From Desulfosoma sp. (lineage in GTDB: Bacteria; Desulfobacterota; Syntrophobacteria; Syntrophobacterales; DSM-9756), in contig JBBFKW010000004.1 in NCBI GenBank assembly GCA_037481835.1, positions 110,569-174,568 of the forward strand: 64,000 nt of DNA. Reading direction: 5' to 3'. Shown here piece after piece: positions 9,276-13,424 of the stretch; position 1 is the stretch's first letter, and the number at the start of each line of letters is the position of its first letter. The position numbers and the translations under genes were made by a program. The notes beneath the pieces were generated by a model that saw only the letters and a program-made list of their open reading frames with translations, ran no database searches and had not been told where the DNA came from.

Positions 9276-10862
9276 TCAGGCACCGAGGATGGGCCGGATG
9301 GGGACTTTGCCGGCCAGGAAGGCCTTGACGGCGCTGATGGGCACTTCCCTTCGGTGGAAGATGCCTGCGGCCAGGGCCGATTCCGCCCGCGTTCGCGTGA
9401 AGACTTCCAGGAAGTGTTCCGCGCAGCCGGCGCCGCTGGAAGCGATCACCGGAATGCTCACGGCGTCTTTGACGGCGTTGATGAGTTCCAGGTCGAATCC
9501 GGCGTTGGTGCCGTCCCGGTCGATGCAATTGAGAAGAATTTCCCCCGCGCCCAGCTCCTGGCACACCAGCGCCAGGGTCACGGCGTCCACGGGCCGGCCT
9601 TCCCGGCCTCCTTTGACGGTGCACTGGTACCAGCACCAGCGTTCGCCGTTCGGCCCGGGATAGGCGGTTTCCAGGACCCGGTGCGGCACGGCCTGGGGAC
9701 TCGGCACGTAGACCCTTCGCGGGTCGATGGAAATGACCACGGCCTGGCTGCCGTAAACCCGGGAAATCGTCTCGACGGCGCTGTGCCCGCTCTTCTTTCC
9801 CGTGCGGAGCACCTCTTCCACGATGCGCACGGCGTCGCTTCCGATGGAAATCTTGTCAGCCCCGGAACGGAAATATTCTGAAGCCACTTCCAGGGCGGTG
9901 TAAGCCGTCCCGTCTTGGTCCACGTAGTCCCGGATGCCGCCGCCGATGGTCAGGGGAACGAAGACGTTTTCCGACGTCCGGCGAAGCACTTCCAGCATGG
10001 GCAAGTCTTTCAAGGGAAAATCGCGAAAGCCCGTGATGTTGAGAAAGGTGATTTCATCGGCCCCTTCTTCGTAGTAGCGCCGGGCGAGCTCCACGGGCTT
10101 TCCCAGATTGCGCACCGTCCCCCTTTCCCGAACGTCGTAGCGGTCGCCCTTGGTCACCACAAGGTCGCCCTGATCGTTGGTGCGCACATCCAGGCAGGCG
10201 ATGATGCGCTTGGCCAGTTCCGTCTTGGAAGGCGTTCGAGGCGGCCGAACGGGCGGGGCATCCATGCCTTCGAGAAAATTCTTCAGGATCGCCAGCCCCG
10301 TGGGGCCGCTTTTTTCGGGGTGGAACTGGACCGCCGCCACCCGCCCCTTCTGGACGGCGCTCACGAATTCCAGACCGTAGTCCGTGGTCGTGAGCACCAC
10401 CGACGGATCTTCCGGGACCACGTGGAAGGAATGGACGAAGTAGACCTTTTCGTCGCCTTCCAGGCCTCCAAAGAGCGCCGACGGTTTCTGCGGCTTGATG
10501 CCGTTCCAGCCGATGTGCGGCACGGCCAGATCCACCCGAAACCGGCGGACCGTCCCTTCGAGGAACCCGATCCCGTCTTCGCCGGGAGCCTCCTCGCTTC
10601 CCTGGAAAAGGGCCTGCAGCCCCAGGCAGATACCCAGGAAAGGCCGGTCCGCCTCCAGATAGCGGCGAAGGGGTTCCACGAAGCCTCGACGGCGAAGGAC
10701 GCGCATCATTTCTCCGAACGCCCCCACGCCGGGGAAAATGAGCCTTTCCGCCGAAAGGATATCTTCCGGGCGGGTGACGAACCGCACCGTATAGCCGAGG
10801 CGCTGCACGGCATTGACGACGCTCCGCACGTTTCCGGCTCCGTAGTCGAGCACAGTCACCAT
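9276..10862 (-). CDS. hisHF: Fused imidazole glycerol phosphate synthase (glutaminase HisH plus cyclase HisF, HIS7-like)
   Basis: N-terminal DYGAGN, GICLG, QFHPE; C-terminal AKRIIACLDV, GADEITFL, GGGIRD, DRDGT and ASSGAG in one 528-aa ORF. Confidence 0.93.
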   Translation of the reverse strand: MVTVLDYGAGNVRSVVNAVQRLGYTVRFVTRPEDILSAERLIFPGVGAFGEMMRVLRRRGFVEPLRRYLEADRPFLGICLGLQALFQGSEEAPGEDGIGFLEGTVRRFRVDLAVPHIGWNGIKPQKPSALFGGLEGDEKVYFVHSFHVVPEDPSVVLTTTDYGLEFVSAVQKGRVAAVQFHPEKSGPTGLAILKNFLEGMDAPPVRPPRTPSKTELAKRIIACLDVRTNDQGDLVVTKGDRYDVRERGTVRNLGKPVELARRYYEEGADEITFLNITGFRDFPLKDLPMLEVLRRTSENVFVPLTIGGGIRDYVDQDGTAYTALEVASEYFRSGADKISIGSDAVRIVEEVLRTGKKSGHSAVETISRVYGSQAVVISIDPRRVYVPSPQAVPHRVLETAYPGPNGERWCWYQCTVKGGREGRPVDAVTLALVCQELGAGEILLNCIDRDGTNAGFDLELINAVKDAVSIPVIASSGAGCAEHFLEVFTRTRAESALAAGIFHRREVPISAVKAFLAGKVPIRPILGA

Positions 10863-10878: not shown

Positions 10879-12426
10879 TTAGGGGTGGATCATCGGCATG
10901 AGCGCTTGAGGCCGGTCCGTGATGACGGCCGAAACGCCCCATGCCTTGAGCTGCTTCAGCCTTTCGGGATCATTGACCGTCCAGGCGATCAGGGGAATGC
11001 CCGCCGCCTGGCATCGGCGGACGAGGGCTTCGGATATTTTTCCGTCCGCGGGGTGCAGGGTATCGGCGTTCACGGCGCGGATCAAGGCCTCCGGATCGTC
11101 GATGGTTTCCTGCGTCAAGACGCCCGTGAGGATCCGCGGGTCCAGGCTCTTGAGTCGGCGAAGGACGTCGTGGTGAAAGGACGAGACGAGAACCCATGCG
11201 TGCATCTCGAGATCGGAGATGAGCCTTGCGGTTTCTCGGACGAGGCGGTCGTGGTGGTCGGGGTGCCCCTTGATCTCCACATTGACCGGCCAGTTCAGAG
11301 CCCGGGTGAATAATAGGGCCTCGCGCAGGGTGGGGATGCGGGCGGGGGGAGGGGGGGCGTTTTCACCCCTCACCCCGGCCCTCTCCCCTAAAGGGGAGAG
11401 GGGGGACGGGACGGATCTCTCCCCTAAAGGGGAGAGGGAGGACCGGATGGATGTCTCCCGGAAAGGGGAGAGGGAGGACGGGGGGCTTGTCTCCCCTGCA
11501 AGGGACAGGGAGCATTGGGGAAGTGTCTCCCTTAACAGGGACAAGGGGTAGTGGCACTGTGTCGTCCTTGCATGGGAAAGGGAGCGCCGGGGATGGGCAT
11601 CCCTCGGAGGGGCGGTAAATGCCAGGGCCTCGCGCAGGGTGGGGATGCGGGCGGGGGAAGGGGGGGCGTTTTCACCCCTCACCCCGGCCCTCTCCCCTGA
11701 AGGGGAGAGGGGGTCCTGGATGGATCTCTCCCCGAAAGGGGAGAGGGGGTCCTGGATGGTTCTCTCGCCTAATGGTGAGAGGGGGGACGGGATGGATGTC
11801 TCACCTAAAGGGGAGAGGGAGGACGGGGGGCTTGTCTCCCCTAAGGGGGAGAGGAAGAATTGGCGGAGTGTCTCGCCCAAAGGAGAGAGGGAACACTGGG
11901 GCAATGTGTCCCCTAAAGGCGAGAGGAAGAATTGGCGGAGTATCTCGCCTAAAAGGGTAAGGGAGAAGTGGGGGAGTGTCTCCCCTAAGGGGGGCAGGGA
12001 GCGCTGGGGGAGTTTCTCCCGTAAGGGAAAGAGGGAGGAGTGGCGGAGTGTCTCCCTTAGAGGGGAGGGGGCGCAGTGGGGCTGTGTCGGCCTTGCCTGG
12101 GAAAGGGAGCGCCGGGGATGGGCATCCCTCGGGGAGGCGAGGGGGCGGAGCGGCCGGATTTCTTCCCACAGGAAATCCCGAACGCGCCACGGCTTCCGAT
12201 CCGGATAGAGCTCGGCGGCGTCGGTCGTTCTTTCCAAGGTGTCGTCGTGGATCACCACGGGGATGTCGTCCTTGGAAAGCTGCACGTCCAGTTCCCAGAA
12301 ATGGGCCCCGGTCAAGTACCCCAGGGCGGCCGTTTCCAGAGTGTTTTCAGGGCCCAGGTCCCGGCCCCCCCTGTGCGCCCCCACCCAGAAAACCCCTCCG
12401 GCTCTAAGATCCGCCCATCGCTTCAT
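10879..12426 (-). CDS. Glycerophosphodiester phosphodiesterase with a large in-frame repeat insertion
   Basis: GAHRG, PENTL, ELDV, VIHDDTLERTT, RIPTLREAL, VEIK, SSF, WTVND and ITDRP motifs; ATG overlaps the upstream stop (ATGA). Confidence 0.88.
   Translation of the reverse strand: MKRWADLRAGGVFWVGAHRGGRDLGPENTLETAALGYLTGAHFWELDVQLSKDDIPVVIHDDTLERTTDAAELYPDRKPWRVRDFLWEEIRPLRPLASPRDAHPRRSLSQARPTQPHCAPSPLRETLRHSSLFPLREKLPQRSLPPLGETLPHFSLTLLGEILRQFFLSPLGDTLPQCSLSPLGETLRQFFLSPLGETSPPSSLSPLGETSIPSPLSPLGERTIQDPLSPFGERSIQDPLSPSGERAGVRGENAPPSPARIPTLREALAFTAPPRDAHPRRSLSHARTTQCHYPLSLLRETLPQCSLSLAGETSPPSSLSPFRETSIRSSLSPLGERSVPSPLSPLGERAGVRGENAPPPPARIPTLREALLFTRALNWPVNVEIKGHPDHHDRLVRETARLISDLEMHAWVLVSSFHHDVLRRLKSLDPRILTGVLTQETIDDPEALIRAVNADTLHPADGKISEALVRRCQAAGIPLIAWTVNDPERLKQLKAWGVSAVITDRPQALMPMIHP
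11315..12140. repeat. Two arrays (7 and 13 units) of a 36-bp palindromic unit, each ending in a BoxC-like element, inside the GDPD gene
   Basis: Unit core CTCTCCCC-TAAA-GGGGAGAG (11381, 11417 and onward); full element CCCCTCACCCCGGCCCTCTCCCCT(A/G)AAGGGGAGAGGG near 11366 and 11675; near-identical flanks at 11315/11624 and 11574-11607/12099-12132. Confidence 0.9.
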
Positions 12427-13424
12427 GGGCCTCCTCTGTCCGGGTGCGGCTCCCGGAGCCGTTCCAGCAGGGCGCACACGCTGCAGCGGGTCCCGTAACA
12501 GGGTTCGCCGCACCGGTCGCACGTGCCGAAATCATCCACAACTTTCGGGGCCGACCTCGCATCCAGGTAGGCGAAAAGAAAGTCCCTCTTGGTTCCCGGC
12601 ATTTTGCCTTCCAGCATGTCCAGGGCTTCTTTGAACATGTGGCTTGTGGCGCCGCGGGACAGAGGGCAGGCTCCTTCCACGTAAGCAATCCCTTCCACCC
12701 GGCAGTAGGTGCGGATTTCGTCGGCCGAAACGCGATAGAGCGGCTTGATTTTTTCCGGGAGCTTCGGATGGACGGACGGCAGATAGGGAGATTGCTTTTC
12801 GATGTATTCCCGTCGGTTTCGCACGAGGTTTCCCAGAAGCCTTCCGGCTTCGTCGTCCAGGTTGTGGCCCGTGGCGATCACGCGCAGCCCCTCGCGGATG
12901 GTGAGGCGGTTCAGGAGGCGGCGCTTGATCATGCCGCACACGGAACAGATGGGACGCCGGATGCGCCGCCGAATCTCGGGGATGGAGAAGCCCAGCAGGT
13001 CCCGGAGGGAATAGCTCACCCACGGGAGGTTCCGTGCCTCGGCAAAGGCGGCGATGGCGTCCTGCGACGCATCGGAAAAGGCCGGGATGCCGAGATTCAG
13101 GTGGACACCCCGGGTGCGGTAGCCCAAATCCTGCAAAACGGCCCAGGCGGCCAGGGAATCCTTGCCGCCCGAGACGGCCACGAGGATGGGCTCATCGGCC
13201 CTGATGGGAAAATGTTTCATGGCCCGAAGAACCGCCCGGCGAAAGAAAAGAACAAAGCATTCTTCACAGAAATTGGCATGATGGCTGGGCAGGGCGATGA
13301 CGGCCCGCTTTCGGCATCGCGTGCACTTGGCCGTTTCGGGAAGAAGCCTATGTTCGTGGGGCAGCGTCCTGGGTCCTCGAAAAACGTTCCCCGGAGCCGT
13401 CCCTTCGGGTCGGTTGGCGTCCAT
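12423..13424 (-). CDS. ttuA: tRNA 2-thiolation protein, TtuA/Ncs6-type PP-loop ATPase
   Basis: N-terminal CxxC...CxxC finger, SGGKDS, CSVC, TGHNLDDE, CP and C-terminal CxxC...CxxC finger. Confidence 0.75.
   Translation of the reverse strand: MDANRPEGTAPGNVFRGPRTLPHEHRLLPETAKCTRCRKRAVIALPSHHANFCEECFVLFFRRAVLRAMKHFPIRADEPILVAVSGGKDSLAAWAVLQDLGYRTRGVHLNLGIPAFSDASQDAIAAFAEARNLPWVSYSLRDLLGFSIPEIRRRIRRPICSVCGMIKRRLLNRLTIREGLRVIATGHNLDDEAGRLLGNLVRNRREYIEKQSPYLPSVHPKLPEKIKPLYRVSADEIRTYCRVEGIAYVEGACPLSRGATSHMFKEALDMLEGKMPGTKRDFLFAYLDARSAPKVVDDFGTCDRCGEPCYGTRCSVCALLERLREPHPDRGGP

Follow-up and report, generated by a model that had tools for sequence, protein, structure and literature searches.

Probable in-frame expansion of a BoxC-type triplex motif inside a glycerophosphodiester phosphodiesterase gene of Desulfosoma

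A stretch of 64,000 nucleotides (nt) from Desulfosoma sp. (assembly GCA_037481835.1, contig JBBFKW010000004.1, positions 110,569 to 174,568; called the window below) carries a gene for a glycerophosphodiester phosphodiesterase (GDPD) in which the two catalytic halves are separated by arrays of 36-nt units, each array ending in an element of the BoxC type. The account that we consider probable is that one such element entered the part of the gene that codes for a tolerant loop, expanded there as its hairpin half underwent slippage-type duplication, and later went through a segmental duplication, and that an enzyme under selection now carries the product as a translated, disordered and freely evolving insert that is locked in frame. 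Our best reading of the insert is that of a tolerated expansion, rather than of a pseudogene or an artefact. The genome assembly (G000 below) comprises 3.63 Mb in 38 contigs with 60.4% G+C, and the window is G000:C4:110569-174568.

The gene occupies most of a minus-strand open reading frame at 10879..12522, and the likeliest start is the ATG at 12426, which gives a protein of 515 residues. Its parts are as follows, in window positions and in gene order.

10879..12426, minus strand: the GDPD gene, 515 codons plus stop, its ATG overlapping the stop of the upstream gene as ATGA.
12142..12426, minus strand: N-terminal catalytic part, residues 1-95 (AHRGG, ENTL, WELDV, IHDD); Pfam stretch 19-100.
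11674-12141, minus strand: array A, 13 units of 36 nt, residues 96-251; units A1 and A2 decayed, A12 and A13 with perfect 8-bp stems.
11676..11711, minus strand (the sense strand): triplex motif ending array A (BoxC/PIT/TMECO, type B, CCG second loop), an exact pattern match.
11617..11673, minus strand: duplicated host codons ENAPPSPARIPTLREALAF, residues 252-270, matching the original stretch (11308-11364) in 52 of 57 nt.
11365-11616, minus strand: array B, 7 units of 36 nt, residues 271-354, collinear with A1, A2, A3/A5, A9, A10, A10/A12 and A13.
11367..11402, minus strand: triplex motif ending array B, an exact pattern match.
10882..11364, minus strand: C-terminal catalytic part, residues 355-515, starting ENAPPPPARIPTLREAL and aligning to 2pz0 residues 97-248.

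A first-pass annotation of the window had called this gene a GDPD with intact catalytic motifs and an in-frame insert of about 259 residues, and each of these statements has held. Two separate stretches of the protein match Pfam PF03009 (E 2.3e-40), and the score of 139.7 bits is well above the curated cut-off of 23.6. The alignment columns that are invariant in 11 orthologues (H18, R19, G20, E45, D47, H60, D61, E384 and K386) are all kept; we take these columns (HRG, E..D, HD and E.K) to be the catalytic residues. In the sequence alignment to 2pz0, the GDPD of T. tengcongensis (E 1.2e-25), residues 73-96 of the latter, 24 in number, stand opposite residues 74-361 of the Desulfosoma protein, which number 288, and because of this alignment about 260 residues count as extra, all within a gene frame that is free of stops. 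To judge from the sequence, the 515-residue product is a glycerophosphodiester phosphodiesterase with its two catalytic halves split by an insert.

Printed in gene-order steps of 36 nt, the whole insert holds a single register, and the printout bears out the earlier count of 13 + 7 units of exactly 36 nt, their coordinates and their reading as LSPLGE....... Tandem Repeats Finder (TRF) assigns the two main arrays a period of 36 with 0-1% insertions and deletions (indels); an overlapping fourth row, which covers the decayed distal units at 11967-12088, has 11% indels. Both arrays finish in LSP[LS]GERAGVRG; the final unit of array A reads LSPSGERAGVRG and that of array B reads LSPLGERAGVRG. The insert is composed of 17% proline, 16% leucine, 15% serine and 10% arginine, and ...GERAGVRGENAPPSPAR is an example of its peptide. 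Every unit had been described as centred on a hairpin, and this is accurate for the units near the motif but not for the remainder, since the exact 8-4-8 hairpin is found in only 4 of the 20 units. Counted from the terminal element outward, the Watson-Crick stem pairs number 8,8,7,6,7,6,5,3,5,4,5,3,2 in array A and 8,8,6,5,6,3,4 in array B.

What is the element at the end of each array? On the sense strand both arrays close with CCCTCTCCCC-TT[TC]A-GGGGAGAGGG-CCG-GGGTGAGGG. The TMECO pattern, printed in PMC4666352 as CCCTCNCCC-N3-6-GGGNGAGGG-N3-GGGNGAGGG, has two exact matches in the GDPD gene and seven in the G000 genome (loop 3-6), and with up to one mismatch it has 21 in G000 against 0 in a shuffled genome. 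When the loop is allowed to span 3-8, G000 holds 19 copies of the triplex motif, with 0 for a reversed-pattern control. A 58-nt query across the motif finds matches in 5078 of 5426 complete E. coli genomes, at a median of 6 places per genome, and the eight E. coli places listed show 85.7-93.5% identity over 46-49 nt with no annotated feature beneath them. The exact fit to the consensus and the E. coli matches therefore turn what had been noticed as a BoxC-like ending of each array into membership by sequence. By its pattern of blocks the terminal element is a three-block triplex motif, more than a plain palindrome.

Counting the element genome-wide, in coding and intergenic DNA, gave a dispersed family that is in frame in three genes, those for GDPD, a uracil-DNA glycosylase (UDG) and ComEC, with most arrays lying outside long open reading frames. 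In G000 this family usually takes the form of a hairpin array capped by the motif, and both GDPD arrays conform to that pattern. Hairpin-like units stand at regular spacing on the C-stem (5') side of 8 of the 19 motifs; regularly spaced units 3' of a motif occur only at three inverted-pair motifs in ComEC, and two UDG motifs have one downstream hairpin-like match each. The TRF periods of the family arrays in G000 are 29-31, 33, 35-37, 39, 42-44, 55, 59-63, 72-73, 85 and 90 nt, with 0-13% indels, and most of these arrays have no long open frame across them. In a comparison of 21 genomes (G000 and 20 relatives), the motif was counted 19 times in G000, 101 times in G006 and 3 times in G004, and the other 18 genomes, the same-genus G001-G003 among them, had zero.

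The family is unevenly placed. Contig C6 (at about 77-125 kb and 165-167 kb) holds 12 of the 19 G000 motifs and most of the hairpin arrays, which suggests a repeat-rich region or island. The 101 motifs of G006, on the complete 3.4-Mb chromosome G006:C1 of a member of the same family, are near-identical, and many stand in tandem arrays, spaced roughly 71, 110, 120, 125 and 230 nt apart. A second dispersed repeat family in G000 has the core GTTGGGGTTCGCT.CGCTCACCCCAACCTAC, often in inverted pairs 62-65 nt apart, at sites on many contigs that include C1:68033, C3:121238, C10:84143 and C14:47298. G000 also has two clustered regularly interspaced short palindromic repeat (CRISPR) arrays (C12:31072-33575 and C20:414-10596), which differ in their repeats and have periods near 70-74 nt. 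The GDPD arrays themselves were ruled out as a CRISPR array: they consist of 20-nt hairpins with mutually similar 16-nt spacers inside a reading frame, unlike the true CRISPR arrays with their periods of 70-74 nt. For a Y1 transposase of the RAYT type, G000 offers a single weak match to PF01797 (27.9 bits, C8:140941-141240). We know of no mobility mechanism for BoxC/TM elements, and the word 'selfish', which had been applied to the palindrome, goes beyond the evidence.

The layout of 13 + 7 units has a history of its own. RIPTLREAL had been placed solely after the insert; in fact it is present twice, at residues 260 and 363 from the ATG, and the host codons that follow the motif, ENAPP[SP]PARIPTLREAL[AL]F, are identical at 52 of 57 positions between the two copies. 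Individual units of the two arrays also correspond (A1-B1 32/36, A2-B2 30/36, A9-B4 31/36, A10-B6 33/36, A13-B7 35/36), and there are similar units within array A itself (A6-A8 30/36, A11-A12 31/36). The second RIPTLREAL with its host codons shows that the insert is a tandem segmental duplication which took in host DNA, and arrays A and B are the outcome of one such duplication rather than two independent arrays. A dispersed mobile unit carrying the RIPTLREAL codons was ruled out, as that host stretch occurs in G000 only at the two places within the gene.

The orthologues supply the earlier stages. Alignment with the GDPDs of related genomes, which had been proposed at the first pass, found same-genus orthologues without the insert. 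Proteins encoded at the syntenic site, directly upstream of a hisH-hisF fusion, have 260-315 residues, and the G001 orthologue reads ...ELETFAAIPGVWRIPTLREAL with no insert. Two alleles found in other assemblies are closer to the G000 gene: P0003 (281 residues, 80% identity) has one degenerate motif at the same site, RTPFGERAGTRGE, and P0002 (314 residues) has about four decayed units followed by one motif that is read LSPLGERAGVRG; the P0002 identities are 75% and 66% over two local alignments, insert included, and its catalytic parts align almost without change. Together they form a graded series at one site, from empty through one motif and a short array to the 13 + 7 units of G000. The insert-free orthologues and the single-element alleles support amplification within the gene; the earlier proposal that a palindrome was amplified there thus stands as to the amplification, the element being the three-block triplex motif.

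Two relatives, G003 (about 80 residues) and P0006 (about 75 residues), have unrelated inserts in the same loop, and the DNA for the G003 insert shares no more than 8-10-nt words with the 36-nt unit (E 0.2 or worse). Across 185,579 species genomes there were 568 relatives, of which the best 80 loci were compared, and none of these 80 gave a match longer than 993 nt; the closest named relatives of the gene among them are an uncultured Desulfosoma metagenome-assembled genome and Desulfacinum. Among the best 150 representatives from 1.84 billion proteins there was none longer than 465 residues. With the insert as the query against 5.8 billion proteins, restricted to lengths of 283-902 residues, the one match was P0002. 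The similarity of P0113 (436 residues, with a 12-residue TLTPLGEAIVRG repeat) was judged to be due to chance. The downstream neighbour in the window (9276-10862, minus strand) is the fused hisH-hisF gene for imidazole glycerol phosphate synthase (528 residues), which shows 81-89% identity across the family; the order GDPD-hisHF is kept in relatives.

Two further genes of G000 carry the same repeat family. A family-4 UDG gene (C22:23034-24038, locus L025, minus strand) contains three 90-nt repeats (3 x 30 residues) with the motif in each, located in the variable linker that joins the N-terminal helix to the UDG domain, and the UDG orthologues of G001, G002, G003, G005 and G006 have unrelated linkers at the repeat site. 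The ComEC gene (C6:165005-169270, locus L018, plus strand) has an in-frame insert of about 450 residues within the N-terminal DUF4131 region, in which 30-nt and 24-nt arrays are combined with three 426-nt repeats that bear inverted pairs of the motif; the ComEC genes of G001-G003 are open frames of 901 residues without the insert, in which the flanks abut. The TRF periods of the in-gene arrays include 36, 90, 30, 24, 48, 60 and 426 nt, all multiples of three, with no further period reported for the GDPD and UDG arrays. An open frame over an array at C10:26424-28247 was rejected as a gene, having no Pfam match and looking antisense. For annotation, the peptides LSPLGERAGVRG, PLPLEGERSGEG and SPPLGGEGRGEG are best treated as translated repeat DNA, not as domains.

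How might one element have become 20 units in two arrays? In the simplest sequence of events, an element of about 40 nt of the BoxC/PIT/TMECO type (C-stem, loop, G-stem, CCG and second G block) would have inserted into the GDPD gene, within the part that codes for the loop, in some ancestor of the Desulfosoma-like lineage. The hairpin half with a 16-nt spacer would then have been copied in tandem on the C-stem side, one or two units per step, most likely by replication slippage at a stable hairpin or triplex. Next, an array of about seven units together with the adjoining 19 or so host codons (ENAPPxPARIPTLREALxFT) would have been duplicated in tandem, and the upstream copy, array A, would later have gained about six units, partly in mid-array (A6-A8) and partly beside the motif (A11-A12). 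The gene would have stayed open because the unit is 36 nt long and stop-free in the sense frame. The product would be a disordered stretch of about 260 residues, rich in proline, leucine and serine, that extends from a variable surface loop of the TIM barrel while the enzyme keeps working. Slippage, translation and retained activity are the steps in this scheme that we infer; the anatomy of the locus, its alleles, the kept frame and the contrast in selection are observed.

Logan contigs of four sequencing runs (X1-X4) were placed on 10900-12450, and they bear on the possibility that the arrays are an assembly artefact, in which short reads inflated the number of units or 13- and 7-unit strain alleles were joined as a false tandem. 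G000 is an assembly of 38 contigs and contains two near-identical stretches of about 100 nt here, no listed piece reaches across the array, and strain variants occur together in X3 and X4. In X1, possibly the source sample, overlapping contig pieces with 100% identity run along the region and overlap consistently; the listed pieces leave 11654-11668 uncovered, and every depth bin is above zero. The junction between unit B1 and the duplicated host codons (11578-11653), which is unique sequence, is matched with 0 differences both in X1 and in X4, the latter being a hot-spring metagenome of a different study. The copies differ by 3-17% per unit and also in the host part (52/57), unlike strain alleles, and the units are distinct enough for placement by 31-mers. 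None of the four runs has a contig that skips the array, and no indels are listed in them; X2 left parts of the array uncovered and was not used as evidence. An artefact of either kind is in our judgement most improbable.

The strain variants of the gene in X3 and X4 allow a comparison of the core with the insert. Relative to these variants the catalytic core has 7 synonymous changes and 1 non-synonymous, and the insert has 7 synonymous and 25 non-synonymous, spread 9/13/10 over the codon positions, counts that cover 40 of the 42 listed differences and are indicative only, because they come from two runs of one study and pieces may have been placed on the wrong array unit. The density of differences in the insert is about 3.5 times that of the core. 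Judged from these substitutions, the catalytic core looks to be under selection, and the insert looks free to evolve yet locked in frame.

The same comparison speaks to whether the gene is decaying into a pseudogene, or goes untranslated across the array, with a frame that is open only since the G+C-rich unit happens to be stop-free. Over 11315-12140 (826 nt) the gene frame alone among the six is without stops, the other five having 1, 2, 3, 12 and 13 against a mean of 8.5 in shuffles, so that three of the other frames come close to being open. In addition, GDPD evolves much faster across the genus than hisHF, with 58-74% against 89% identity to G003. A decaying gene would fit poorly, however, with a core that has 7 synonymous changes to 1 non-synonymous, with invariant catalytic columns that are all intact and with an ATGA overlap to the upstream gene that has been kept. 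The P0002 and P0003 alleles are likewise in frame, and the units are exactly 36 nt, against the 0-13% indels and non-triplet periods of other G000 arrays. We regard decay or lack of translation as very unlikely.

An alternative is recruitment: the insert may have acquired a function, as a flexible tether or spacer, as an interaction or localisation segment, or as a length-variable, contingency-like region that tunes the enzyme through its number of units. The residues GERAG[VT]RG[EQ] are kept across three diverged alleles, the 20 diverged units all stay in frame (0-1% indels for the two main arrays), three proteins of G000 have such inserts, and loose ends seen within the arrays in X3 and X4 hint that populations differ in unit content. 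Against these stand the 25 non-synonymous and 7 synonymous changes, even over codon positions, which give the insert an unconstrained look, along with its predicted disorder and the same-genus orthologues that do without it. Moreover, the same DNA family builds arrays of many periods (29-90 nt) off long open frames. Recruitment is in our view unlikely, and tolerated expansion of a BoxC/TM element remains the preferred explanation.

Structure prediction agrees with that explanation. AlphaFold2, run with the orthologue alignment, gives the N-terminal part a predicted local distance difference test (pLDDT) score of 78-96 and the C-terminal part 90-98, and residues 101-358 are almost all below 50. 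The two core parts jointly form the GDPD barrel, for which Foldseek reports a target-normalised TM score of 0.86-0.89 to 2pz0 (E 1e-15). Sequence and predicted fold thus match those of 2pz0 over both halves, the difference being the replacement of 24 residues by 288, and the insert is predicted to be a disordered stretch in a loop that is variable among relatives.

Several points weigh against the preferred explanation, in addition to the limits on the substitution counts given above. The number and order of the units are unprovable from 31-mer contigs, because no listed piece spans the array. The open frame is by itself weak evidence, because three other frames of the array hold only the few stops already mentioned. 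Units A3-A8 arose in mid-array, so that expansion was not strictly beside the motif, and the mid-array duplications therefore weaken a model of strictly motif-proximal growth; the gradient of stem decay could alternatively reflect homogenisation near the motif. There were no RNA runs among the listed sequencing runs that contain the locus. Finally, the enzyme might be impaired by some 260 disordered residues that, on the predicted model, lie at the catalytic face of its barrel.

At the RNA level, the array is predicted to fold much more stably than shuffled sequences do (z = -9.7). A promoter or terminator within the array was looked for and none was found, and no known RNA family in Rfam matches the array at the gathering score. 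Below that threshold, whalefall-1 (RF01762) appears at 11415-11479 and at five other places in the array, with a best score of 25.9 bits against 37. The consensus of whalefall-1 is a CUCUCC..GGAGAG hairpin with a GGGUGAGG block, and it may be that this orphan motif from metagenomes is a repeat of the BoxC/TM type in its own right.

Knowledge of BoxC/PIT/TM elements goes back to the 1990s, and as far as we are aware neither a function nor a mode of spread has been established for them. TMECO is the motif earlier named BoxC or PIT (Holder et al. 2015, PMC4666352). In the available part of that paper, E. coli MG1655 is described as having 23 TMECO copies, always intergenic, no promoter, terminator or regulatory role is reported as found, the triplex is shown in vitro with E. 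coli oligonucleotides and not in vivo, and the motif is linked with local genomic instability (PMC4666352). The elements of G000 resemble TMECO in their exact fit to the consensus, with the CCG second loop of type B, and in being multi-copy and patchy among relatives, as the same part of the paper describes for Enterobacteria (PMC4666352). They differ in two respects. The G000 elements lie on the sense strand inside three genes, whereas the E. coli copies are intergenic, a difference of habit that is outside the sequence definition; and they cap tandem arrays of their own hairpin half, whereas the available part of PMC4666352 mentions inverted pairs only. In full-text searches of the literature, none of the papers listed announced BoxC/PIT/TM elements in reading frames or capping hairpin arrays in its title or the opening of its abstract, although Hoyne et al. 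2000 and the supplements of PMC4666352 may bear on the point.

The closest precedent for palindromic DNA within genes is that of the Rickettsia palindromic elements (RPEs), which the accessible part of PMC10969869 describes as single elements of about 150 bp, in ten families specific to Rickettsia, inserted in frame in unrelated housekeeping genes, with the insert translated as an extra peptide that was judged compatible with the protein fold. Both cases involve palindromic repeat DNA in frame in housekeeping genes. In the present case, however, a TMECO motif of about 40 nt seeds arrays of 36-nt units that add 260-450 residues, and this sets it apart from RPEs by description. The GDPD arrays also have much in common with ordinary intragenic tandem repeats, namely a triplet period, slippage-like growth, a disordered product and a position in a loop that has unrelated inserts in relatives. 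What distinguishes them is that their unit can be followed back to a family of non-coding repeats dispersed over G000 itself.

What would this expansion mean more generally? The graded series displays an element entering a gene and then expanding, a single gene sets a selected core against a freely evolving, frame-locked insert, and two further genes of G000 have been treated alike. One may ask whether BoxC/triplex motifs at large seed new protein sequence, with the hairpin half copied outward into an array that, given a triplet period and a tolerant loop, yields hundreds of translated and freely evolving residues; we hold this generalisation to be possible but doubtful. If true, it would amount to a general and so far undescribed birth route for disordered regions in bacteria, and it would provide evidence for the insertion of BoxC/triplex elements at new sites. 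For Desulfosoma itself, it would mean that, as the graded series, the contrast within one gene and the two further genes already make testable how repeats of non-B DNA expand and how much disorder a TIM-barrel enzyme tolerates, one repeat family remodels several housekeeping proteins (GDPD, UDG and ComEC) of a thermophilic sulfate reducer.

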